Origin: Escherichia coli
Lineage (GTDB): Bacteria; Pseudomonadota; Gammaproteobacteria; Enterobacterales; Enterobacteriaceae
Length of the DNA: 64,000 nt
NCBI RefSeq assembly: GCF_046105845.1
Contig: NZ_CP151004.1
Reading direction: 5' to 3' (one strand)
Numbering within the stretch: the first letter of the stretch is position 1; each line of letters starts with the position of its first letter. Under the pieces are notes generated by a model that searched no databases, had not been told where the DNA came from, and worked only from the letters and a program-made list of their open reading frames with translations. A program made the translations under genes and the position numbers. This document shows, one piece after another, positions 11,428 through 24,252 of this stretch.

Positions 11428-13119
11428 ATGAAAACGCTGCTGATTATTGACGCTAATCTCGGTCAGGCACGCGCCTATATGGCGAAGACCCTGCTGGGCG
11501 CGGCGGCGCGAAAAGCAAAACTGGAAATCATCGACAATCCGAACGACGCTGAAATGGCGATTGTTCTCGGTGATTCCATCCCGAACGACAGCGCGCTGAA
11601 CGGTAAAAATGTCTGGCTGGGCGATATTTCCCGGGCAGTTGCGCACCCTGAGCTGTTCCTGAGTGAAGCCAAAGGCCATGCGAAACCTTACACTGCGCCG
11701 GTCTCTGCGACAGCACCGGTTGCCGCCAGCGGTCCGAAACGCGTAGTTGCGGTGACTGCTTGCCCGACTGGCGTAGCACACACCTTTATGGCGGCTGAAG
11801 CCATTGAAACCGAAGCGAAAAAACGTGGCTGGTGGGTGAAAGTTGAAACCCGTGGTTCTGTTGGCGCGGGTAATGCAATCACTCCCGAAGAAGTCGCAGC
11901 AGCGGATCTGGTGATTGTGGCGGCAGATATCGAAGTGGATCTGGCGAAATTTGCTGGTAAACCGATGTATCGTACCTCTACCGGTCTGGCGCTGAAGAAA
12001 ACCGCGCAGGAACTGGATAAAGCGGTTGCTGAAGCAACGCCGTATGAACCGGCGGGCAAAACTCAAACAGCGACCACTGAAGGTAAGAAAGAGAGTGCAG
12101 GCGCTTACCGTCACTTGCTGACGGGCGTCTCTTACATGCTGCCGATGGTCGTTGCAGGTGGTCTGTGTATCGCGCTTTCTTTTGCTTTTGGTATCGAAGC
12201 GTTTAAAGAGCCGGGTACGTTGGCTGCGGCGCTGATGCAGATTGGTGGTGGTTCAGCCTTTGCGTTGATGGTGCCGGTACTGGCAGGTTATATTGCCTTT
12301 TCCATTGCCGATCGTCCGGGTCTCACGCCGGGTCTGATTGGCGGTATGCTGGCGGTCAGCACCGGTTCTGGCTTCATTGGCGGTATTATTGCGGGCTTCC
12401 TGGCTGGTTACATTGCGAAGTTAATCAGTACGCAATTGAAACTGCCACAGAGTATGGAGGCGCTGAAACCGATTCTGATCATTCCGCTAATTTCCAGTCT
12501 GGTGGTCGGTCTGGCGATGATCTACCTGATCGGTAAACCGGTTGCTGGCATTCTCGAAGGGTTGACTCACTGGCTGCAGACCATGGGGACTGCGAATGCG
12601 GTTCTGCTGGGGGCGATCCTCGGTGGCATGATGTGTACTGACATGGGCGGTCCGGTAAACAAAGCAGCGTACGCGTTCGGTGTGGGTCTGCTGAGTACTC
12701 AAACCTATGGCCCGATGGCGGCGATTATGGCGGCAGGTATGGTGCCACCGCTGGCAATGGGCCTGGCAACAATGGTGGCGCGTCGCAAATTCGACAAAGC
12801 GCAGCAGGAAGGTGGCAAAGCCGCTCTGGTATTGGGACTGTGCTTCATTTCGGAAGGTGCAATTCCGTTTGCTGCCCGTGATCCGATGCGAGTGCTGCCG
12901 TGCTGTATCGTGGGTGGGGCGCTGACTGGCGCAATCTCAATGGCGATTGGTGCGAAACTGATGGCACCGCACGGTGGTCTGTTTGTTCTGCTGATCCCTG
13001 GCGCGATTACGCCGGTATTGGGTTACCTGGTAGCCATTATTGCCGGTACGCTGGTGGCGGGTTTGGCCTATGCCTTCCTGAAACGTCCGGAAGTGGACGC
13101 AGTAGCGAAAGCAGCGTAA
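11428..13119 (+). CDS. fruA: PTS fructose EIIB'BC permease
   Basis: 563-aa ORF with N-terminal IIB-like domains followed by a polytopic IIC domain. Confidence 0.93.
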   Translation: MKTLLIIDANLGQARAYMAKTLLGAAARKAKLEIIDNPNDAEMAIVLGDSIPNDSALNGKNVWLGDISRAVAHPELFLSEAKGHAKPYTAPVSATAPVAASGPKRVVAVTACPTGVAHTFMAAEAIETEAKKRGWWVKVETRGSVGAGNAITPEEVAAADLVIVAADIEVDLAKFAGKPMYRTSTGLALKKTAQELDKAVAEATPYEPAGKTQTATTEGKKESAGAYRHLLTGVSYMLPMVVAGGLCIALSFAFGIEAFKEPGTLAAALMQIGGGSAFALMVPVLAGYIAFSIADRPGLTPGLIGGMLAVSTGSGFIGGIIAGFLAGYIAKLISTQLKLPQSMEALKPILIIPLISSLVVGLAMIYLIGKPVAGILEGLTHWLQTMGTANAVLLGAILGGMMCTDMGGPVNKAAYAFGVGLLSTQTYGPMAAIMAAGMVPPLAMGLATMVARRKFDKAQQEGGKAALVLGLCFISEGAIPFAARDPMRVLPCCIVGGALTGAISMAIGAKLMAPHGGLFVLLIPGAITPVLGYLVAIIAGTLVAGLAYAFLKRPEVDAVAKAA

Positions 13120-13128
13120 TAAAAGGTG

Positions 13129-13161
13129 TGTTACAGGGCAGAAATTTCCTGCCCTGTAACA
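13129..13161 (+). terminator. Stem-loop immediately downstream of fruA (13-bp stem, no U-tract)
   Basis: tgttacagggcag-aaatttc-ctgccctgtaaca, a perfect 13-bp stem starting 10 nt after the fruA stop; followed by only ttt. Confidence 0.5.
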
Positions 13162-13274
13162 TTTGATGAGCGCAAAGGGAATGACCGGTTTGTGAATGTA
13201 ATTTTATGAATTTAAATGGTTTTATCTTTTAGTAGAAACCTGAAACTTTCATCAAACACTAAGGTTATTTCCTC

Positions 13275-13306
13275 AAGGGCAGATTAATTTCTGCCCTTTT
13301 TTATTG
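13275..13306 (+). terminator. Canonical intrinsic terminator downstream of fruA
   Basis: aagggcag-attaattt-ctgccctt followed by ttttttattgtt. The stem core (agggcag/ctgccct) is shared with the hairpin at 13129-13161. Confidence 0.75.
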
Positions 13307-13440
13307 TTCCTGTTCTGTGCATCCCGTCACAAATTCCCCGTTTTTGTAATTCAGGCATTTAATCGCGTTTTGTGAGCCTGCTCAAATCTGCCCATTTTGC
13401 CTCTCTGGCGGTAATTTACTTTACGTAAAACATGCATACT

Positions 13441-13476
13441 ATGAGCACATGTTTAAATATGAACACATGTTTAAAC
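13441..13476. repeat. Tandem 18-bp direct repeat upstream of psuK
   Basis: atgagcacatgtttaaat | atgaacacatgtttaaac: two adjacent 18-mers with 2 mismatches, each containing the palindromes acatgt and tttaaa, ~70-100 bp upstream of the psuK ATG. Confidence 0.7.
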
Positions 13477-13542
13477 CGTCTTTGCAGTATCAATATTCTT
13501 GTGGATTGACAGGGTTGGTAATTTTTTACCAGAGGACGTGCT

Positions 13543-14484
13543 ATGCGCGAAAAGGATTATGTCGTAATTATAGGTTCGGCGAATATTGATGTCGCCGGAT
13601 ATTCACATGAATCATTAAATTATGCGGATTCAAATCCAGGTAAAATAAAATTTACGCCTGGTGGAGTCGGGCGCAATATTGCACAAAACCTGGCGTTGCT
13701 GGGGAATAAATCCTGGCTACTGAGCGCAGTAGGCAGTGATTTTTATGGTCAATCGTTGCTAACGCAAACCAATCAATCTGGTGTTTATGTCGATAAATGC
13801 CTGATTGTGCCGGGAGAAAACACGTCGAGCTATTTATCATTACTCGATAATACCGGTGAAATGCTGGTTGCTATAAATGACATGAATATTAGCAACGCTA
13901 TTACAGCTGAATATCTCGCACAGCACCGTGAATTTATTCAAAGGGCAAAGGTCATTGTCGCGGACTGTAATATCAGTGAAGAGGCACTGGCATGGATTCT
14001 GGATAATGCCGCCAATGTACCTGTATTTGTCGATCCGGTTTCGGCATGGAAATGTGTCAAAGTGCGCGACCGTCTAAATCAGATCCACACCCTGAAGCCA
14101 AACCGCCTTGAAGCGGAAACCCTGAGTGGGATTGCTTTGTCAGGGCGTGAAGATGTGGCAAAAGTTGCTGCCTGGTTCCATCAACATGGCCTGAACCGAC
14201 TGGTATTGAGCATGGGCGGCGATGGCGTTTATTACAGCGATATCAGCGGTGAAAGTGGCTGGTCTGCGCCGATCAAAACCAATGTTATTAATGTTACCGG
14301 AGCGGGCGATGCCATGATGGCTGGACTTGCTTCGTGTTGGGTAGACGGAATGCCGTTTGCCGAATCTGTTCGTTTCGCACAGGGATGTTCGTCAATGGCG
14401 CTCTCCTGTGAATACACCAATAACCCCGATTTATCGATTGCCAACGTTATATCTTTAGTGGAGAACGCAGAATGTCTGAATTAA
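13543..14484 (+). CDS. psuK: Pseudouridine kinase (PfkB family)
   Basis: 313-aa ORF with ribokinase-like motifs (…GGVGRNIAQNLALLG…, …GAGDAMMAG…). SD gagga at 13532-13536. Confidence 0.88.
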   Translation: MREKDYVVIIGSANIDVAGYSHESLNYADSNPGKIKFTPGGVGRNIAQNLALLGNKSWLLSAVGSDFYGQSLLTQTNQSGVYVDKCLIVPGENTSSYLSLLDNTGEMLVAINDMNISNAITAEYLAQHREFIQRAKVIVADCNISEEALAWILDNAANVPVFVDPVSAWKCVKVRDRLNQIHTLKPNRLEAETLSGIALSGREDVAKVAAWFHQHGLNRLVLSMGGDGVYYSDISGESGWSAPIKTNVINVTGAGDAMMAGLASCWVDGMPFAESVRFAQGCSSMALSCEYTNNPDLSIANVISLVENAECLN

Positions 14485-15410
14485 AAATTTCCCCTGAATT
14501 ATTACAAATTTCCCCGGAAGTGCAGGACGCTTTAAAAAACAAAAAACCGGTTGTGGCGCTGGAATCGACCATTATTTCTCACGGGATGCCGTTCCCACAA
14601 AATGCCCAGACCGCAATTGAAGTTGAAGAAACTATTCGTAAACAGGGCGCTGTACCTGCCACTATCGCCATTATTGGCGGCGTGATGAAAGTGGGTTTAA
14701 GCAAAGAAGAAATTGAATTGCTGGGTCGTGAAGGGCATAACGTGACCAAAGTTAGTCGTCGCGATTTACCTTTTGTTGTTGCCGCCGGAAAAAATGGCGC
14801 AACCACCGTTGCTTCAACGATGATTATTGCGGCGCTTGCCGGAATTAAAGTATTTGCCACCGGGGGAATTGGTGGTGTGCATCGCGGGGCGGAACATACC
14901 TTCGATATTTCTGCCGATTTGCAAGAACTGGCGCACACCAATGTCACCGTCGTTTGTGCCGGGGCGAAATCTATTCTCGATTTAGGCTTAACTACCGAAT
15001 ATTTAGAAACTTTCGGTGTACCGCTAATTGGCTATCAGACCAAAGCGCTGCCTGCGTTTTTCTGCCGCACCAGCCCGTTTGAAGTCAGTATTCGCCTTGA
15101 TAGTGCCACGGAAATTGCTCGTGCAATGGCAGTGAAATGGCAAAGCGGTCTGAACGGTGGCCTGGTGGTGGCAAATCCGATCCCGGAACAGTTTGCGATG
15201 CCGGAGGAATCTATCAATGCAGCCATAGATCAAGCCGTCGCCGAAGCCGAAGAGCAGGGCGTTATTGGTAAAGAAAGCACACCGTTCCTGCTGGCTCGTG
15301 TTGCTGAACTGACTGGCGGTGACAGCCTGAAATCCAACATCCAACTGGTGTTCAACAACGCCATTCTGGCGAGCGAAATTGCCAAAGAATATCAGCGTCT
15401 CGCGGGTTAA
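14472..15410 (+). CDS. psuG: Pseudouridine-5'-phosphate glycosidase
   Basis: 312-aa ORF of the IndA-like glycosidase family; overlaps the psuK 3' end by 13 bp. Confidence 0.88.
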   Translation: MSELKISPELLQISPEVQDALKNKKPVVALESTIISHGMPFPQNAQTAIEVEETIRKQGAVPATIAIIGGVMKVGLSKEEIELLGREGHNVTKVSRRDLPFVVAAGKNGATTVASTMIIAALAGIKVFATGGIGGVHRGAEHTFDISADLQELAHTNVTVVCAGAKSILDLGLTTEYLETFGVPLIGYQTKALPAFFCRTSPFEVSIRLDSATEIARAMAVKWQSGLNGGLVVANPIPEQFAMPEESINAAIDQAVAEAEEQGVIGKESTPFLLARVAELTGGDSLKSNIQLVFNNAILASEIAKEYQRLAG

Positions 15411-15437
15411 TTTCTGACGGGCAGAAAGCCGTCGCCC
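15411..15437 (+). promoter_or_regulatory. Conserved 27-nt leader motif upstream of psuT (copy 1)
   Basis: tttctgacgggcagaaagccgtcgccc begins immediately after the psuG stop; 26/27 identical to 18639-18665 upstream of nupX. Confidence 0.5.
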
Positions 15438-15503
15438 GTACTCATCAAGCATACCAAAACCTGGCGCTGACGCCGGGTTTACTGGCATGAAGGGAAAATC
15501 ATT

Positions 15504-16754
15504 ATGGATATAATGAGAAGTGTTGTGGGGATGGTGGTGCTACTGGCAATAGCATTTCTGTTGTCAGTGAATAAAAAGGGCATCAGTTTGCGCACGGTTG
15601 GAGCCGCACTGCTGCTGCAAATCGCTATTGGTGGCATCATGCTCTACTTCCCACCGGGAAAATGGGCAGTAGAACAGGCGGCATTAGGCGTTCATAAAGT
15701 GATGTCTTACAGTGATGCCGGTAGCGCCTTTATTTTTGGTTCATTGGTCGGGCCGAAAATGGATGTCCTGTTTGATGGCGCGGGCTTTATCTTCGCCTTT
15801 CGCGTACTCCCGGCGATTATCTTCGTCACTGCGCTCATCAGTCTGCTGTACTACATTGGCGTGATGGGGCTGCTAATCCGCATTCTTGGCAGTATTTTTC
15901 AGAAAGCTCTCAACATCAGCAAAATCGAATCTTTTGTTGCGGTTACCACTATTTTCCTCGGGCAAAATGAGATCCCGGCGATTGTAAAACCGTTTATCGA
16001 TCGCATGAATCGCAACGAGCTGTTTACCGCAATTTGTAGCGGGATGGCGTCCATTGCGGGTTCGATGATGATTGGTTATGCCGGAATGGGCGTACCAATT
16101 GACTACCTGTTAGCGGCATCGCTGATGGCGATCCCTGGTGGTATCTTGTTTGCACGTATTCTTAGTCCGGCAACCGAGCCTTCGCAGGTCACATTTGAAA
16201 ATCTGTCGTTCAGCGAAACGCCGCCAAAAAGCTTTATCGAAGCAGCGGCGAGCGGTGCGATGACCGGGTTGAAAATCGCCGCTGGTGTGGCGACGGTGGT
16301 AATGGCGTTTGTCGCAATTATTGCGCTGATCAACGGTATTATCGGCGGAATTGGCGGCTGGTTTGGTTTTGCCAATGCTTCTCTGGAAAGTATTTTTGGC
16401 TATGTGCTGGCACCGCTGGCGTGGATCATGGGTGTGGACTGGAGTGATGCCAACCTGGCGGGTAGCCTGATTGGGCAGAAACTGGCGATTAACGAATTCG
16501 TCGCTTACCTGAGCTTCTCCCCATACCTGCAAACGGGCGGCACGCTGGAAGTGAAAACCATTGCGATTATCTCCTTTGCGCTTTGTGGTTTTGCTAACTT
16601 TGGTTCTATCGGTGTTGTCGTTGGCGCATTTTCGGCTATTTCGCCAAAACGCGCACCGGAAATCGCCCAGCTTGGTTTACGGGCGCTGGCAGCAGCAACG
16701 CTTTCCAACCTGATGAGCGCGACCATTGCCGGGTTCTTTATTGGTTTAGCTTGA
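15504..16754 (+). CDS. psuT: NupC-family (CNT) nucleoside transporter
   Basis: 416-aa polytopic membrane ORF; close paralog of the ORF at 18691-19941. Confidence 0.88.
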   Translation: MDIMRSVVGMVVLLAIAFLLSVNKKGISLRTVGAALLLQIAIGGIMLYFPPGKWAVEQAALGVHKVMSYSDAGSAFIFGSLVGPKMDVLFDGAGFIFAFRVLPAIIFVTALISLLYYIGVMGLLIRILGSIFQKALNISKIESFVAVTTIFLGQNEIPAIVKPFIDRMNRNELFTAICSGMASIAGSMMIGYAGMGVPIDYLLAASLMAIPGGILFARILSPATEPSQVTFENLSFSETPPKSFIEAAASGAMTGLKIAAGVATVVMAFVAIIALINGIIGGIGGWFGFANASLESIFGYVLAPLAWIMGVDWSDANLAGSLIGQKLAINEFVAYLSFSPYLQTGGTLEVKTIAIISFALCGFANFGSIGVVVGAFSAISPKRAPEIAQLGLRALAAATLSNLMSATIAGFFIGLA

Positions 16755-16759
16755 GTTTC

Positions 16760-16800
16760 ATTGCCGGATGTACGCGCTTATTTAGCGTCACATCCGGCAA
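16760..16800. repeat. REP-like palindromic element between convergent psuT and yeiL
   Basis: gccggatgtacgcgcttatttagcgtcacatccggc, an inverted repeat with REP-type GCCGGATG arms. Confidence 0.65.
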
Positions 16801-16821
16801 TCGCTCTATTGCAAATAATTT

Positions 16822-17481
16822 TTACTGCATCATCCCTGAGAATTTATTTTCCGGGTCCATCTCCAGTGCCAGTCCTGACAACTGCTTTCTGTTTTTAATT
16901 AGATACCCTTTCTTGCTTTTAATTAATAAACCGTCGTGAATGAGTTGAGCGAGAACATATAAAAGATGTCGATAAGAAACGCCTAAATACTCTGCCGCTT
17001 GCGTATGCTTTTCGTGATAAAGATCACCTTCTTGTGAGAGTAATATAAAAGCTGCCAGGCGATTCACTAACGGAAATGATTGATTCTGAGTTAAAGAAAC
17101 AATATTGCGATAATTTTTATGGCTTAAACTAACGCAGAGTTTTCGTAAAAATAGTGTGTCGTTTAATAACAGCGGACGGTAATGTTTCATAGGGAGCGCA
17201 AGGCACCAACACTCTTCAATAGCCTGTACCGCACGCGGTTCATGGTCTTTATCGATTAACTCAATCTCACCAATAAAACAGGGGGCGGCAAAGAAATCGA
17301 TCAGCGACACGCGACCATTAGCAAGCGTGGCGTAAAGCCTGGCGCGGCCTCGCGTCAGGTAAAACAGCCAGGACGGCTGTTGCCCTTCCTGCACTATGTA
17401 GTCACGCGCTAAAAAATGAAACAGCCGCGTATCGGCTGAAACATCCGTTGAAAAGCAATCCTTAAACGCGGATTCACTCAT
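16822..17481 (-). CDS. yeiL: CRP/FNR-family transcriptional regulator
   Basis: 219 aa from ATG 17481 (GTG at 17520 would give 232 aa). cNMP-binding-like domain plus C-terminal HTH (…[14 protein letters not shown]…). Confidence 0.85.
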
Positions 17482-17649
17482 CAATTGCTGCTTAAGATCA
17501 TTATTGTGGATTTCTTTCACGATGTTTATCCGCTATGAGATTTCTCATATTTAGCATACTTACGCTGTTGTTAAGATTCAATCATCGGCCCGGTCGAATT
17601 TTCTTTGCTGTAGAAAAAATAACGCAACTGGAAACAGAGGAAATAAACA

Positions 17650-18591
17650 ATGGAAAAGAGAAAAATTATTCTGGATTGTGATCCGGGTCATGATGATGCT
17701 ATTGCTATAATGATGGCGGCGAAACATCCGGCAATAGATTTATTAGGCATCACCATTGTGGCGGGTAATCAGACGCTTGATAAAACATTAATTAATGGGC
17801 TGAATGTTTGCCAGAAACTGGAGATTAATGTTCCGGTTTATGCGGGGATGCCACAGCCCATTATGCGTCAACAAATCGTTGCCGATAATATTCACGGTGA
17901 AACCGGACTTGATGGCCCGGTATTCGAGCCGCTGACCCGCCAGGCAGAAAGCACTCATGCGGTGAAATATATCATCGATACCCTGATGGCAAGCGATGGC
18001 GATATCACTCTGGTGCCGGTTGGTCCGCTTTCAAATATCGCGGTGGCAATGCGCATGCAGCCCGCAATCCTGCCGAAAATCCGTGAAATTGTGCTAATGG
18101 GCGGCGCTTACGGTACTGGCAACTTTACGCCATCCGCCGAGTTCAACATCTTTGCTGACCCGGAAGCCGCACGCGTGGTGTTCACCTCCGGCGTTCCGTT
18201 GGTGATGATGGGCCTCGATCTCACCAACCAGACTGTTTGCACCCCGGACGTGATTGCTCGGATGGAAAGGGTAGGCGGCCCCGCCGGAGAGCTGTTCAGC
18301 GACATCATGAATTTCACTCTAAAAACGCAGTTCAAAAACTACGGCCTGGCTGGCGGCCCGGTGCATGACGCCACCTGCATCGGTTATCTGATTAACCCTG
18401 ATGGCATTAAAACCCAGGAGATGTACGTCGAAGTGGATGTTAACAGTGGCCCTTGCTATGGGCGTACCGTCTGCGACGAGCTGGGCGTTCTTGGCAAGCC
18501 CGCTAATACCAAAGTCGGCATCACTATTGATACCAACTGGTTCTGGGGATTAGTCGAAGAGTGCGTGCGCGGCTACATCAAAACCCATTAA
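17650..18591 (+). CDS. rihB: Pyrimidine-specific ribonucleoside hydrolase
   Basis: 313-aa ORF with the nucleoside hydrolase N-terminal Asp cluster (…[17 protein letters not shown]…). Confidence 0.92.
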
Positions 18592-18638
18592 GTGTTGATA
18601 ACAAGCCGGGTCAGTATCGCAAGATGCAGGCCCGGCTA

Positions 18639-18665
18639 TTTCTGATGGGCAGAAAGCCGTCGCCC
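18639..18665 (+). promoter_or_regulatory. Conserved 27-nt leader motif upstream of nupX (copy 2)
   Basis: tttctgatgggcagaaagccgtcgccc, preceded by a hairpin (agccggg…cccggct, 18604-18637) downstream of rihB. Confidence 0.5.
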
Positions 18666-18690
18666 AATATGACATGAAGAGATAATAACT

Positions 18691-19941
18691 ATGGATGTCA
18701 TGAGAAGTGTTCTGGGAATGGTGGTATTACTGGCAATTGCATTTTTACTGTCAGTAAACAAGAAGAAGATCAGCCTGCGTACTGTCGGTGCGGCGCTGGT
18801 ATTACAGGTCGTGATTGGCGGGATTATGCTTTGGTTACCGCCAGGGCGTTGGGTCGCAGAAAAAGTCGCTTTTGGCGTCCATAAAGTGATGGCGTACAGC
18901 GATGCAGGTAGCGCTTTTATCTTCGGTTCGCTGGTCGGGCCGAAAATGGACACCTTATTTGATGGCGCAGGATTTATCTTTGGCTTCAGGGTATTACCGG
19001 CAATTATCTTCGTTACAGCACTGGTGAGTATTCTCTACTACATCGGTGTGATGGGGATCTTAATTCGCATTCTCGGCGGTATATTCCAGAAAGCATTGAA
19101 TATCAGCAAGATTGAGTCATTCGTCGCGGTCACTACCATTTTCCTCGGGCAAAACGAAATTCCGGCAATCGTCAAACCCTTTATCGATCGTCTGAATCGC
19201 AATGAATTATTTACAGCGATTTGTAGCGGGATGGCCTCGATTGCTGGTTCGACAATGATTGGTTACGCCGCACTGGGCGTGCCTGTGGAATATCTGCTGG
19301 CGGCATCGTTAATGGCGATCCCCGGCGGGATCTTGTTTGCCCGCCTGTTAAGCCCGGCTACGGAATCTTCGCAGGTTTCCTTTAATAACCTCTCTTTCAC
19401 CGAAACACCGCCAAAAAGCATTATTGAAGCCGCCGCTACAGGGGCAATGACCGGACTGAAAATCGCAGCAGGTGTGGCGACAGTAGTGATGGCATTTGTC
19501 GCCATCATTGCGTTAATTAACGGTATTATCGGCGGCGTTGGCGGCTGGTTTGGTTTTGAACATGCCTCGCTGGAGTCCATTTTAGGTTACCTGCTGGCCC
19601 CGCTGGCGTGGGTGATGGGGGTTGACTGGAGTGATGCGAATCTTGCCGGGAGTTTGATTGGACAGAAACTGGCGATTAATGAATTTGTCGCTTACCTCAA
19701 TTTCTCACCTTATCTGCAAACAGCTGGCACTCTGGATGCTAAAACCGTGGCGATTATTTCCTTCGCGTTGTGCGGTTTCGCTAACTTTGGTTCTATCGGG
19801 GTGGTGGTGGGGGCGTTTTCTGCGGTTGCGCCACACCGTGCGCCGGAAATCGCCCAGCTTGGTTTACGCGCGCTGGCGGCGGCGACACTTTCTAACCTGA
19901 TGAGTGCCACCATTGCAGGATTCTTTATTGGCTTAGCGTAG
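18691..19941 (+). CDS. nupX: NupC-family nucleoside permease
   Basis: 416-aa ORF, largely colinear and highly similar to psuT (MDVMRSVLGMVVLLAIAFLLSVNKK… vs MDIMRSVVGMVVLLAIAFLLSVNKK…). Confidence 0.88.
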   Translation: MDVMRSVLGMVVLLAIAFLLSVNKKKISLRTVGAALVLQVVIGGIMLWLPPGRWVAEKVAFGVHKVMAYSDAGSAFIFGSLVGPKMDTLFDGAGFIFGFRVLPAIIFVTALVSILYYIGVMGILIRILGGIFQKALNISKIESFVAVTTIFLGQNEIPAIVKPFIDRLNRNELFTAICSGMASIAGSTMIGYAALGVPVEYLLAASLMAIPGGILFARLLSPATESSQVSFNNLSFTETPPKSIIEAAATGAMTGLKIAAGVATVVMAFVAIIALINGIIGGVGGWFGFEHASLESILGYLLAPLAWVMGVDWSDANLAGSLIGQKLAINEFVAYLNFSPYLQTAGTLDAKTVAIISFALCGFANFGSIGVVVGAFSAVAPHRAPEIAQLGLRALAAATLSNLMSATIAGFFIGLA

Positions 19942-19949
19942 TGCGCGAT

Positions 19950-19992
19950 TTATGAGCCGGATAAGACGCGGTCAAGCGTCGAATCCGGCAAC
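19950..19992. repeat. REP element between convergent nupX and yeiI
   Basis: gagccggataagacgcggtcaagcgtcgaatccggcaa, REP-type palindrome (CCGGATAAG…CGTC…ATCCGG). Confidence 0.7.
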
Positions 19993-19996
19993 ATTG

Positions 19997-21085
19997 TTAC
20001 ACCATCGGCACTAATGAAAGCGCGTTATCGGCAGACAGGGTAGGGTTGTTTAAGCTGCCGCTGGCGCGTGAAATTGCCGCGCAGGCCATCGCAAAACGGG
20101 CGCTGTCACGGAAATTGTTTCCCTCCAGAAAGCTATATACCAGGCCCGCCATAAAACCATCGTCAGCACCAAAACTGTCTACTGTCGTATGCGCTGGCGC
20201 TGTCAGCAAAAATTGCTCTCCATTCTTTTCGCTGCAATAAACTGACTCATCGGGCAAATAAACAAACAGTTGCTGAACGCCTTGCTGATGCAACGCATTC
20301 ACTGCGGCATTACGGTCAGCATCGCTGGTGATCGCCTGTCCCCATAAAATTTCCAGCTCCGGTAAAGTGGGTTTCAGGGTGTGAATATGCGCCAGCCAGT
20401 GTTTGATTTTGCCCGCTTTGAATTCTGAAACGGTATCGACAAACACCGGGATTTCATCAGCGAGGGTAAAGACCCACTCCAGCGCCTCGGCTGTCAGGTT
20501 GCAATCAGCAAGTACCACGCCCGCATGACGAAGTAAATCGCGCGACCCGTTCAGTAGTTGCGGTGTCAACTGATCCAGCAGATGGGTATCGTTAATCGCC
20601 AGCACGGTTTGATCATCTCGATTGGCAATTGCCAGATACGTCGATGTGCTTTGACCATGTAAACGAACGCAGCCGGAGACATTCACGCCGGCGCGGCGCG
20701 TTTCTTCCAGGAGCATTTCGCCATAAAAGTCATCGCCAATCACTGAAAGCAAATGGACGTCGCGGCCTAACAGCGCCAGATTGTGGGCGATATTGCGTCC
20801 CACGCCGCCCGCCGAGCAATGAATTGTACCGGGATGAGAAGCCGCTTGTGGGTAACGGATATCCGCCATCCCGCGAATATCCATATTGATTGTCCCAACC
20901 ACTACGCAGTATTCCTGCTCGGTGAGAATGTAACCTTTGCCTTTAATCCGGCCTTTGCGCATTAAATCCATAATATGCGCAGCAACGCGCGAACGGCTGA
21001 TTTGCAGCATATCCGCAATTTCGTTCTGCTGAATCAGCGGGTTACGCCGTAAAATTGCAAGGATCTCCTTCTCCCGGTTGTTCAT
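19997..21085 (-). CDS. yeiI: HTH-fused PfkB-family sugar/nucleoside kinase
   Basis: 362-aa ORF. N-terminal ~55-aa winged-HTH-like segment (…QNEIADMLQISRSRVAAHIMDLMRKGRI…) followed by a PfkB kinase domain (…GGVGRNIAHNLALLG…). Confidence 0.88.
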   Translation of the reverse strand: MNNREKEILAILRRNPLIQQNEIADMLQISRSRVAAHIMDLMRKGRIKGKGYILTEQEYCVVVGTINMDIRGMADIRYPQAASHPGTIHCSAGGVGRNIAHNLALLGRDVHLLSVIGDDFYGEMLLEETRRAGVNVSGCVRLHGQSTSTYLAIANRDDQTVLAINDTHLLDQLTPQLLNGSRDLLRHAGVVLADCNLTAEALEWVFTLADEIPVFVDTVSEFKAGKIKHWLAHIHTLKPTLPELEILWGQAITSDADRNAAVNALHQQGVQQLFVYLPDESVYCSEKNGEQFLLTAPAHTTVDSFGADDGFMAGLVYSFLEGNNFRDSARFAMACAAISRASGSLNNPTLSADNALSLVPMV

Positions 21086-21087
21086 CT

Positions 21088-21945
21088 TCAGGCTACCGCT
21101 TTTTCAGTTTGTTGCGCTTTCAGCCAGGCGATCTCTTCTGCCCAGATATCCGGGTTGATGGTTTCAAGGATCAGCGGAATGCCGTCGAAACGGTCGTCCT
21201 GCATGATCCAGCGGAACGCATCATGACCGATATTGCCTTCACCGAGGCTATGATGGCGGTCAACGCGGCTGCCAAAGGTGCTTTTCGCATCGTTAAGGTG
21301 CATCCCGCGCAGATACTTAAAGCCAACAATACGGGCAAAATCCGCGAACGTTTTCTCGCATTCGGCAGAAGTACGCAAATCATACCCGGCAGCGAAAGCA
21401 TGGCAGGTATCAATGCAGACGCCGACGCGGGATTTATCTTCCACGCCGTCGATAATCGCCGCGAGATGTTCGAATTTAAACCCTAAGTTACTGCCCTGAC
21501 CGGCGGTGTTTTCAATCACCGCTGTCACACCATGAGTTTTATCCAGCGCAATGTTGATGGATTCGGCAATACGCGCAAGGCAATCCTCTTCTGAAATTTG
21601 CATCAGATGGCTGCCAGGGTGGAAGTTGAGCAAAGAAAGCCCCAGCTGTTCGCAACGCTGCATTTCATCTATAAACGCATCGCGCGATTTTTCCAGAGCT
21701 TCAGCGACCGGATGTCCGAGGTTAATCAGATAACTGTCGTGGGGAAGAATTTGCGCCGATGTGTAGTGATATTTTTCACAGGCGGCTTTGAATTCATCGA
21801 TGGTTTGCGTCGTGAGCGGTGCGGCACGCCACTGACGTTGGTTTTTGGTGAACAAGGCAAACGCGGTTGCGTCGATTTCGGCGGCGCGAATTGCGGCATT
21901 TGCCAGACCGCCAGCAGCACTAACGTGCGCTCCAATGTATTTCAT
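21088..21945 (-). CDS. nfo: Endonuclease IV (AP endonuclease)
   Basis: 285-aa ORF of the xylose-isomerase-like TIM-barrel AP endonuclease family 2 (…HLNDAK…). Confidence 0.93.
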
Positions 21946-22018
21946 GCGAGGACTCCTGTTAAACCCGCTGGAGGAAAACGGTAATGATAGCGGGTTAACA
22001 GGAGCAAGATGTAGTGGT

Positions 22019-23068
22019 TTATGCGATGACGCTTTGAATCACATAGTTAATCGCACCACCACCAACAATCAGCCAGGCAAACAGTACCAGTGCCATCAGC
22101 AGAGGTTTCGCCCCGGCTTTTTTCAGCGCGCTTACGTGAGTGGTCAGACCCAGCGCCGCCATCGCCATTGCCAGCAGGAAGGTATCCAGCGTTACCAGCA
22201 TGTTCACCACGCTCTGCGGTAACAGGTGGAACGAGTTAAAGATGGCAACTACGATGAACAAGATGGCAAACCACGGAATAGTGATTTTGCTTTTCTCGCC
22301 GCTGTTCGCCCCAGACAGCTGTTTAACACGCGCCGCCAGCAGGATGAGGAACGGAGCCAGCATCATCACGCGCAGCATTTTGGAAATAACTGCTGCGTTT
22401 TCTGCATCCGGGCTGATGGCATGACCTGCCGCCACCACCTGCGCCACTTCGTGCACAGTAGAACCAATGTAGATACCGAAAGTTTCCGGACTAAACCATT
22501 GAGACATCAGCGGATATATCGCCGGGTAGAGGAAAATCGCGACGGTCCCGAAGATAACAACGGTTGCAACAGCCACGGTTACTTTACTGGCTTCCGCTTT
22601 CACTACCGGCTCAGTCGCCAGTACCGCGGCAGCACCACAGATACTGCTACCGGCACCGATCAACCAGCTGGTGTGCTTATCCAGACCAAACACTTTCTGC
22701 CCCAAGAAGCAAGCCAGCAGGAAGGTACTGGACAGCGTCAGCACGTCAATGATGATCCCACTGATACCGACATCGGCAATTTGCGAGAACGTCAGACGGA
22801 AGCCATAAAGAATGATACCCAGACGTAATAAATATTGCTTGGCAAACAGCACACCACCGTCACAGCTTTTCCAGATGTGCGGATAGATGGTGTTGCCTAA
22901 AACCATCCCCAACAAGATTGCGAGGGTGAGGGCACTAAACCCGGCACCCGCAACCGCGGGAATGGAACCACCCCACAGGGCGACCCCGGTGATAACTGCA
23001 CTCAGGGCTAACCCCGGAATAAAATGCCACAGTGTACGATGTTGTTTCTGTAAGGTGATATTCGTCAT
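22019..23068 (-). CDS. yeiH: UPF0324-family inner membrane protein
   Basis: 349-aa polytopic membrane ORF, divergent from the LysR-type gene yeiE. Confidence 0.88.
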
Positions 23069-23166
23069 AACCCTCTCCTTTAACCGGGCATAAGGTTACG
23101 ACTAACTGGTTTAAAAATAAAATTGATTATATATTTATAATTAATCTTTATAAGTGGTAAGCGACT

Positions 23167-24048
23167 ATGCACATCACCCTCCGGCAGTTGGAAGTTTTTG
23201 CAGAAGTATTGAAAAGTGGATCAACCACCCAGGCGTCGGTGATGCTGGCGTTGTCGCAATCAGCAGTGAGCGCAGCCTTGACCGACCTGGAAGGGCAGCT
23301 TGGCGTTCAACTGTTTGATCGCGTGGGGAAAAGACTGGTTGTTAATGAACACGGGCGGCTGCTCTATCCGCGTGCGTTGGCACTGCTTGAACAGGCGGTT
23401 GAAATCGAACAACTGTTTCGCGAAGACAACGGCGCGATTCGTATCTATGCCAGTAGTACCATCGGTAACTACATTCTGCCTGCAGTTATCGCCCGTTATC
23501 GCCATGATTATCCGCAGTTGCCGATTGAACTTAGCGTTGGGAACAGTCAGGACGTGATGCAAGCGGTGCTGGATTTCCGCGTTGATATTGGCTTTATTGA
23601 AGGACCGTGCCACAGCACCGAAATCATTTCTGAACCGTGGCTGGAAGACGAGCTGGTGGTTTTCGCCGCGCCGACTTCGCCATTGGCTCGTGGTCCGGTC
23701 ACCTTAGAACAGCTGGCCGCTGCGCCGTGGATCCTGCGTGAACGCGGCTCCGGCACGCGGGAGATTGTCGATTATCTGTTGCTGTCACATTTACCGAAGT
23801 TTGAGATGGCGATGGAATTAGGTAACTCCGAGGCAATCAAACATGCGGTGCGTCATGGGTTGGGAATTAGTTGCCTGTCGCGACGGGTGATTGAAGATCA
23901 ATTGCAGGCAGGCACATTAAGTGAAGTTGCGGTCCCTCTGCCGCGCCTGATGCGTACGTTGTGGCGTATACATCATCGGCAAAAACACCTTTCCAACGCG
24001 CTACGGCGCTTTCTGGACTATTGCGATCCCGCGAATGTGCCGCGTTAA
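23167..24048 (+). CDS. yeiE: LysR-type transcriptional regulator
   Basis: 293-aa ORF with N-terminal HTH (…[20 protein letters not shown]…) and an LTTR substrate-binding domain. Confidence 0.9.
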
Positions 24049-24252
24049 GTTGCTGTACAAGAACATGCTGGTGCTGTGTCGATTTCGTGACGCAGCGCCC
24101 TCAGCATGCATTCGCCAGAAAAGAGATTGGCTGCTTTACTTATAATCCCAGGGCGATCATGAAGGTGTCTTATAACCGTGTATTTCTGCCGGAAGGATTG
24201 CCAATCGTCTGCTACAATCGCGCCTCATTTTTTAGATGGATAGCATTTTTGT

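Follow-up and report, generated by a model that had tools for sequence, protein, structure and literature searches.

In a stretch of 64,000 nucleotides of Escherichia coli DNA (RefSeq assembly GCF_046105845.1, contig NZ_CP151004.1; hereafter, the window), the yeiI gene encodes a 362-residue protein in which a winged helix-turn-helix (HTH) domain precedes a PfkB domain resembling pseudouridine kinase. Comparative genomics leads us to consider it likely that YeiI is a dedicated transcriptional repressor of the psuKGT operon, acting through a pair of palindromic boxes (the twin box) at the psuK promoter. To a more specific proposal we give slightly less than even odds, namely that YeiI represses as a pseudokinase, sensing pseudouridine as a one-component regulator with a PfkB fold, and that it arose when a bifunctional HTH-PsuK protein was split into an enzyme and a regulator. 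The original prediction from this sequence had been broader, casting YeiI as a ligand-sensing regulator of the whole neighboring nucleoside cluster; our comparisons favor such a role for psuKGT and do not support it for rihB, nupX, or psuT. The evidence set out below (the domains of YeiI, gene order, conservation of the operator, residue changes, and purifying selection) is all computational.

The yeiI coding sequence occupies positions 19997..21085 on the minus strand (ATG at 21085, stop codon at 19997-19999), as given by the list of open reading frames (ORFs), its translation, and the RefSeq annotation. The window is chromosomal and 99.9% identical to E. coli strain 1190. The fusion of an HTH to a PfkB kinase in this product, part of the original prediction, was borne out by Pfam searches, in which residues 1-48 matched HTH_24 (PF13412; E-value 1.2e-10, 41.2 bits versus a cut-off of 21.9) and residues 58-348 matched PfkB (PF00294; E-value 7.6e-68, 229.5 bits versus 25.8). 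HTH_24 was also matched by 64 of 64 YeiI homologs. YeiI scored below the Pfam cut-offs for the MarR family (19.0 versus 27 for MarR_2, 16.7 versus 24.6 for MarR), and a Pfam match to ROK was not found. The winged HTH (residues 1-55; 20921..21085, minus strand) contains helices at residues 3-14, 20-27, and 31-43 in the AlphaFold2 (AF2) model, followed by short strands, which is a winged three-helix topology; the recognition helix lies within ISRSRVAAHIMDLMRKG, and the wing and linker within KGKGY. When the 64 homologs were aligned, R31, S32, A35, I38, G45, G49, and Y52 were invariant and the recognition helix was almost invariant.

The AF2 model of YeiI has a predicted local distance difference test score of 90, with a lower-confidence linker at approximately residues 50-58. 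Its pseudouridine-kinase-like domain (residues 58-348; 20042..20914, minus strand; assigned by Pfam and AF2 superposition) fitted the E. coli pseudouridine kinase EcPUKI (7vtd) with a target-normalised TM-score of 0.96 and a root-mean-square deviation of 1.7 Å, and by structure comparison has the fold of ribokinases and PUKI. Sequence and fold searches both returned E. coli pseudouridine kinase entries (7vkp and related) as the closest solved structures, and no solved structure with HTH-PfkB architecture was found when the PDB was searched by sequence and by fold. YeiI and PsuK are 40% identical over 307 residues (BLASTP E-value 2e-77), and the motifs earlier listed as common to the two proteins are indeed present in both (GGVGRNIAHNLALLG in YeiI, GGVGRNIAQNLALLG in PsuK). 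Full-length YeiI (residues 1-362) matched the NCBIfam model NF007416 (PRK09954 'sugar kinase', the YeiI equivalog) with 812.3 bits versus 561, and reached 258.7 bits versus a cut-off of 540 for NF007355, the PsuK equivalog. By sequence comparison, YeiI is the closest paralog of PsuK and is not classed as a pseudouridine kinase, because it falls below the PsuK equivalog threshold and departs from two catalytic motifs of the family (see below). The HTH-PfkB architecture of YeiI was already annotated before this analysis.

To place YeiI among its relatives, we draw on a survey of 80 species-level genome loci, supplemented by several contig look-ups, that was compiled from a protein search for HTH-PfkB. 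A fused-type HTH-PfkB gene was present in 72 loci, nearly always immediately upstream of psuG and often overlapping it by a few bases, and a gene for a CNT-family nucleoside transporter often followed. These fused loci came from Yersinia, Serratia, Hafnia, Photorhabdus, Xenorhabdus, Gilliamella, Pasteurellaceae, Neisseriales, Shewanella, Vibrionaceae, Aeromonas, Ferrimonas, and Clostridia (Oscillospiraceae, Anaerotruncus). All of the fused proteins carry canonical kinase motifs, and their database labels read either 'PfkB family carbohydrate kinase' or 'winged helix-turn-helix transcriptional regulator'. As read from these loci, the HTH-PfkB gene is in such organisms the pseudouridine kinase gene itself, and its product is presumably both enzyme and autoregulator. 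The fused HTH-PsuK proteins share with YeiI the two-domain architecture, 40-53% sequence identity, a near-identical recognition helix, and a twin box at the psu operon; they differ in having canonical kinase motifs and in being encoded by the first gene of a psuK-psuG operon, whereas yeiI stands apart from the operon, in convergent orientation to it, and encodes a protein with an altered donor site. Four Xenorhabdus loci (L033, L035, L036, and L037) hold a second HTH-PfkB copy with canonical kinase motifs and a truncated, divergent C-terminus; it does not stand beside psuG, and no twin box was found directly upstream of it.

Directly upstream of the fused HTH-psuK genes are two AAAC-N4-GTTT palindromes, 18-20 base pairs (bp) apart, exemplified by CAAACAAAAGTTTG...CAAACATATGTTTG in Shewanella and GGACACATGTTTG...GGACACATGTTTG in Vibrio. 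The core AAC-N4-GTT occurs at a density of 8.9 per kilobase (kb) in the 100 nucleotides upstream of fused genes versus 0.29 per kb elsewhere in the loci. We trained a 14-nucleotide weight matrix on the 120 nucleotides upstream of 71 fused genes, excluding the window and all Enterobacteriaceae loci, and obtained the consensus YAAACAAAtGTTTG. In leave-one-clade-out tests, the best twin box of the locus lay no more than 150 bp upstream of the gene in 49 of 56 held-out loci, and most of the remainder were at -160 to -306.

In the window, this matrix identified a twin box at 13442..13473, upstream of psuK, as the candidate YeiI operator, with box 1 (TGAGCACATGTTTA) at 13442-13455, box 2 (TGAACACATGTTTA) at 13460-13473, and a spacing of 18 bp from start to start. 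The pair was the unique best in the 64-kb window (25.65 versus 14.45 for the runner-up), and its score was reached in 0 of 300 dinucleotide-preserving shuffles (mean maximum 12.7, SD 3.0). Among single boxes in the window, box 2 ranked first and box 1 sixth, with scores of 14.25 and 11.4, although the higher of these is unexceptional beside the mean maximum of 13.9 in shuffles of 64 kb. Because single-box hits were no better than shuffled maxima, we relied on the twin-box score and cross-species conservation, and statistical significance is confined to the box pair and its conservation. A repeat upstream of psuK had been proposed from the sequence as a candidate target; it is real (13440-13475), consists of 18-nucleotide direct copies at 13440-13457 and 13458-13475 that are 94% identical, and coincides with the twin box predicted here to be the YeiI operator. 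The runner-up pair (23388-23419), inside the yeiE coding sequence, recurs at that coding position in other E. coli; it probably reflects chance plus coding conservation and was set aside.

The predicted target operon, psuKGT (13543..16754, plus strand; psuK 13543-14484, psuG 14472-15410, psuT 15504-16754; assigned by Pfam, NCBIfam, and RefSeq), lies 5.5 kb from yeiI in the window, measured from psuK. No matrix box was present in the psuG-psuT, yeiL-rihB, rihB-nupX, nupX-yeiI, yeiH-nfo, or yeiH-yeiE spacers. The best scores upstream of rihB, nupX, and psuT were 2.96, -4.99, and -2.80, respectively, versus 14.25 and 11.4 at psuK, and these three earlier candidates are accordingly dropped as YeiI targets.

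Conservation of the arrangement was assessed in loci in which regulator and kinase are split. In 11 Enterobacteriaceae loci (Escherichia, E. albertii, Citrobacter, Enterobacter, Klebsiella, Leclercia, Phytobacter, and Entomohabitans), yeiH-nfo-yeiI is convergent with psuT-psuG-psuK and PsuK has no HTH; a convergent yeiI/psuTGK module without nfo also occurs in Affinibrenneria (locus L089) and on a metagenomic contig (locus L090). None of these 13 split loci contributed to the training of the matrix. In 13 of 13, which share descent and so count as fewer than 13 independent observations, the highest-scoring pair anywhere in the locus (10-19 kb) was the one preceding the HTH-less psuK, and its spacing was 18 bp in every case; YeiI is the only neighboring protein in these loci with a cognate HTH. 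The gene order in the window is psuK-psuG-psuT, yeiL (on the opposite strand), rihB-nupX, then yeiI, nfo, and yeiH (minus strand), and then yeiE. The yeiL-rihB-nupX block between yeiI and psuT was seen only in E. coli and Entomohabitans, and yeiI directly abuts psuT in the remaining Enterobacteriaceae sampled; therefore, on the evidence of gene order, the conserved partner of yeiI is the psu operon and not rihB or nupX. The contig of locus L090 carries a second twin box (917-948, score 14.0) 66 bp upstream of a 112-residue ORF of unknown function, which may be an extra member of the regulon.

The position of the boxes is that expected of a repressor site. We predict a psuK promoter at 13415..13442 on the plus strand, with a -35 element TTTACT at 13415-13420, a 16-nucleotide spacer, and a -10 element TACTAT at 13437-13442. 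When the 11 Enterobacteriaceae psuK upstream regions were aligned, only the -35 TTTACT, the -10 TAnnAT, and the two boxes were conserved, and box 1 begins on the final base of the -10 element. Occupancy of the boxes by a protein would cover the psuK -10 element and transcription start, which is repressor geometry. In a study of evolution in long-term stationary phase, a single-nucleotide polymorphism (SNP), A to C, was reported in the psuK/fruA intergenic region at -126 of psuK (PMC7858067). This SNP falls at window position 13417 and turns the predicted -35 TTTACT into TTGACT, an improvement of that element that is consistent with TTTACT being the -35; the same position was also reported as a parental difference, making its status as parallel evolution uncertain (PMC7858067). 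A CRP-like site, TGTGAGCCTGCTCAAA, is located at 13369-13386, ~65-70 bp upstream of the predicted psuK start, and a TCACA or TCATA element recurs at a similar distance in other Enterobacterales psu promoters; this recurrence suggests catabolite control of psuK in addition to any control by YeiI.

We then considered what the kinase-like domain retains. In EcPUKI, Asn14 and Asp16 bind ribose, Asp256 is the catalytic base, Tyr97, Asn112, and Met114 line the base pocket, Ser30/Asn143/Lys170 form a hallmark triad, and Lys185 lies near the gamma-phosphate (PMC9061257). We compared these positions in 12 YeiI-clade sequences and 83 PsuK-type sequences (with or without an HTH). N14, D16, S30, Y97, N112, N143, and K170 of EcPUKI correspond to N67, D69, S83, Y150, N165, N196, and K223 of YeiI and are kept in 12 of 12 YeiI-clade sequences, as are the catalytic Asp and Lys185; Met114, which is Thr in all 12, is the sole pocket or catalytic contact changed among those compared.

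Two other motifs have diverged. NXXE (binding of Mg2+ and phosphate) and GXGD (anion hole and catalytic Asp) are hallmarks of the ribokinase family (PMC3118340, PMC5931981). At the position of the NXXE motif, YeiI has T240-L-P-E243, where Thr240 (codon at 20366..20368, minus strand) replaces an Asn found in 83 of 83 PsuK-type sequences; of the 12 YeiI sequences, 11 have Thr and 1 has Ala. At that of GXGD it has G306-A-D308-D309 (GAGD to GADD), in which the catalytic Asp is kept and the second Gly, present in 83 of 83 PsuK-type sequences, is Asp in 12 of 12 YeiI sequences (codon of Asp308, 20162..20164, minus strand). More broadly, 59 columns are at least 93% conserved in the 83 PsuK-type sequences, and 11 of these are replaced across the YeiI clade (D29A, M107T, M114T, N187T, A191L, A209V, S223Y/C, G225X, G228S, G255D, and T292I); 6 of the 11 fall in phosphate-donor motifs, with the donor site mapped by inference and not by structural superposition. 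As judged from these residues, the YeiI changes concentrate in the phosphate-donor site and the nucleoside pocket is preserved.

Two relatives go further. In protein P0104 (L090, 4182-5279), HTLKPN has become DTIILS, with loss of the residues equivalent to Lys185 and Asn187, and GAGD has become GIDN, with loss of the catalytic Asp; this protein keeps the HTH and the Ser30/Asn143/Lys170 triad, and its gene has the convergent arrangement, with a twin box preceding the psuK of that locus. The Affinibrenneria YeiI has KPS..E and GADE at the two motifs. From this pattern, we regard it as an even chance that YeiI is catalytically impaired.

Both domains are maintained. The median ratio of nonsynonymous to synonymous divergence (dN/dS) among Enterobacteriaceae was 0.026 for the YeiI HTH, 0.073 for its kinase-like domain, and 0.079 for PsuK, showing that YeiI is not decaying and that both of its domains are under strong purifying selection. 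In a neighbor-joining tree with 100 bootstraps, YeiI and the Enterobacteriaceae PsuK were each monophyletic (100/100), and the longest stem, 0.305, was that of YeiI.

These observations can be assembled into a model in which four elements are what we infer: that YeiI binds DNA, in which direction it regulates, what its effector is, and that its kinase activity has been lost or weakened. The ancestor would have been a bifunctional HTH-PsuK, both kinase and autorepressor, of the kind still present in most other lineages. Its functions would have been separated in the ancestor of the Enterobacteriaceae and some relatives, by duplication or through an acquired second copy. PsuK would have lost the HTH and stayed an enzyme encoded beside psuG, and YeiI would have kept the winged HTH and the pseudouridine pocket while its site for ATP, Mg, and phosphoryl transfer was remodeled. 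The beta-clasp small domain of EcPUKI mediates dimerization and ligand-induced closure, and pseudouridine binding produces a large Ser30-dependent dimer closure, in which a distance indicator changes from ~66 Å to ~51 Å (PMC9061257). YeiI would likewise dimerize via its PfkB beta-clasp and bind the two AAAC-N4-GTTT-type palindromes over the psuK -10 element and transcription start, blocking RNA polymerase. Pseudouridine in the kinase-like domain would then cause Ser30-dependent dimer closure as described for EcPUKI, the spacing of the two HTHs would shift, and YeiI would leave the DNA, inducing psuKGT. Pseudouridine is plausible as a switch because the HTH is joined by a short linker right before the first strand of the kinase domain. 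More speculatively, the Asp in the GXGD motif could disfavor a bound phosphate and thereby favor unphosphorylated pseudouridine as the effector.

Other readings share parts of this model. YeiI could still be a bifunctional kinase-repressor of psuKGT that phosphorylates pseudouridine, perhaps weakly or with another phosphate donor. We think this unlikely, although the catalytic Asp309, Lys238, the GG switch, and the Glu of NXXE are retained, the pseudouridine pocket is intact, the kinase-like domain is constrained as strongly as PsuK, and some active ribokinase-family enzymes have Asp in place of the NXXE Asn (PMC5931981). What tips the balance is that the Gly-to-Asp change in GXGD occurs in 0 of 83 PsuK-type sequences, that 6 of 11 clade-wide replacements are in phosphate-donor motifs, and that one clade member has lost catalytic residues outright. 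A psuK mutant is, moreover, unable to use pseudouridine, according to a secondary source citing Preumont 2008 (PMC12506659), suggesting that YeiI does not substitute for PsuK. Far less credible is the reading that YeiI actively phosphorylates another nucleoside or sugar, such as one that NupX imports or RihB releases, with the HTH serving only autoregulation or control of rihB and nupX. Specificity could indeed have been shifted by the replacement of the base-contacting Met114 with Thr in all YeiI sequences and of Asp29, beside Ser30, with Ala, and yeiI adjoins nupX and rihB in E. coli. The PUKI triad Ser30/Asn143/Lys170 is nonetheless intact while the donor-site motifs are altered, no boxes were found upstream of rihB, nupX, yeiL, nfo, or yeiI, and in most Enterobacteriaceae yeiI and psuT have neither rihB nor nupX between them, whereas yeiI is universally adjacent to psuTGK.

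Some considerations weigh against a pseudokinase repressor acting at the twin box, beyond the shared descent of the split loci and the ordinary single-box scores noted above. E. coli YeiI keeps the catalytic D309, Lys238 (K185 of EcPUKI), the GG motif, and the Glu of NXXE, and residual or altered kinase activity is possible given these residues. A generic sigma-70 scan of 13100-13560 called no promoter; the proposed psuK promoter matches 8 of 12 positions, the scan threshold was 9, and its support is the phylogenetic footprint. No box occurs near yeiI or nfo, so the model does not account for the control of yeiI itself, and the neighbor-joining tree is compatible with both duplication within Enterobacteriaceae and transfer as the source of the YeiI/PsuK pair. 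In the searchable literature, DNA binding, a yeiI phenotype, and a ligand are not reported, and YeiI is called uncharacterized. The twin box might even belong to another regulator, with the YeiI HTH vestigial or non-transcriptional and YeiI having no role in psu expression, a possibility to which we assign the least weight of all. The link between YeiI and the boxes rests on sequence, single boxes do not stand out, and the CRP-like half-site upstream means that other factors probably act on the psuK promoter. Against a different owner of the boxes, HTH-PfkB is the only gene that co-occurs with them across Gammaproteobacteria, Betaproteobacteria, and Clostridia, and no part of YeiI is under tighter constraint than the HTH (dN/dS 0.026), whose recognition helix is nearly invariant in 64 homologs.

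Regulators built on enzyme folds are well known. The ROK repressors NagC and Mlc have an N-terminal HTH on a sugar-kinase fold that serves as a ligand sensor, and paralogous true kinases are encoded in the same genome. YeiI would be alike in logic, by analogy, with an unrelated fold: ROK proteins belong to the actin-ATPase superfamily and PfkB proteins to the ribokinase superfamily. BirA, NadR, and PutA combine an enzyme and a DNA-binding domain in one polypeptide, with substrate or product controlling DNA binding. They may be taken as analogs of the ancestral fused HTH-PsuK, their enzyme families being unrelated; unlike them, YeiI appears to be a post-split form, a regulator only and not a working bifunctional protein. 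PsuK/PUKI (E. coli YeiC; PDB 7vkp, 7vtd, and 7vva) shares with YeiI the PfkB fold, 38-40% identity, the pseudouridine contacts, and the beta-clasp; YeiI differs in its extra N-terminal winged HTH, in the changes at Met114, NXXE, GXGD, S223, G225, and G228, and in not being encoded beside psuG. PfkB proteins also have transcription-related roles in Arabidopsis, where the pfkB-type 'fructokinase-like' proteins FLN1 and FLN2 are found in the plastid transcription complex (PMC3409070). Unlike YeiI, these eukaryotic proteins lack an HTH and work within a polymerase complex, and they are not known to bind operators under ligand control.

YeiI has been listed among hypothetical E. coli transcription factors (PMC6055005), and its function was still called unknown in papers of 2022 and 2025 (PMC9061257, PMC12506659). 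One paper mentions a LysR-type regulator under the name 'YeiI' (PMC6698644); since YeiI does not belong to that family, YeiE was apparently meant. In the searchable literature, with curated regulon databases outside the scope, we found neither YeiI nor any HTH-PfkB protein described as a regulator, nor an operator or regulator of psuKGT; the assignment of regulator, operator, target, and split origin thus appears new, the fusion itself having been annotated already. In E. coli K-12, yeiI belongs to the genes that still lack an assigned function; a regulator, an operator, a promoter, and a probable inducer are now proposed. If the proposal is true, a y-gene gains a function, PfkB kinases become a further enzyme fold from which bacterial transcription factors have evolved, and YeiI cleanly illustrates how, in nature, an enzyme-repressor can separate into an enzyme and a regulatory pseudoenzyme, with intermediate and fully degenerate forms to compare: the fused HTH-PsuK, E. 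coli YeiI, the Affinibrenneria 'GADE' form, and the P0104 'GIDN' form. A pseudouridine-responsive repressor/operator pair could also be used for biosensing, or be targeted by engineering in strains that make pseudouridine for messenger RNA therapeutics; such strains already carry deletions of psuK and psuG (PMC10552469).

The gene directly upstream of yeiI is nfo (21088..21945, minus strand), whose stop codon ends 2 nucleotides before the yeiI ATG (...GCCTGAAGATG...), and a terminator-like site between the two genes was not found. Because of this 2-nucleotide gap and the lack of an intergenic terminator, yeiI is probably co-transcribed with nfo by read-through, as far as the junction sequence allows a prediction. 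Among the sites listed in a genomic SELEX (systematic evolution of ligands by exponential enrichment) study is one for RNA polymerase that lies between these two genes (PMC3946193). On the other side, the 55-nucleotide convergent spacer between nupX and yeiI (19942-19996) contains a GC-rich inverted repeat, GCCGGAT...ATCCGGC, which is probably a shared bidirectional terminator or an element resembling repetitive extragenic palindromes.

Conserved leader motifs had also been put forward as candidate YeiI targets. Such a leader does exist upstream of psuT and nupX and is unrelated to the box, so it stands as a motif and not as a target. It is a 27-nucleotide sequence, TTTCTGA[C/T]GGGCAGAAAGCCGTCGCCC, common to the psuG-psuT (15411-15440) and rihB-nupX (18637-18667) spacers, where it precedes paralogous CNT transporter genes; it contains a GACGG/CCGTC hairpin and no YeiI-type box. 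As a known RNA element it was rejected, a search of 13000-24200 with Rfam having returned nothing at E-values up to 1.

The cluster varies between E. coli strains (seen at L087, 8930-8995, and L088, 5924-6621, among others), with a nupX remnant in some and a frameshifted yeiL in others. Two deeply diverged yeiI alleles (window positions 19900-21200) are present in the species, ~3360 genomes having at least 95% and 2060 genomes 80-90% nucleotide identity to the window. Between the window allele and E. albertii (L007), whose yeiI is 85% identical, synonymous divergence is ~1.15 for yeiI and 1.14 for psuK. Two forms of the psuK promoter region exist as well, that of the window being matched by megablast in only 4224 of 5426 genomes, and the -35 element, the -10 element, and the twin box are kept in both. 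In a few genomes, yeiI is truncated or interrupted by IS1; if the repressor model is true, psuKGT would be derepressed in genomes with a broken yeiI.

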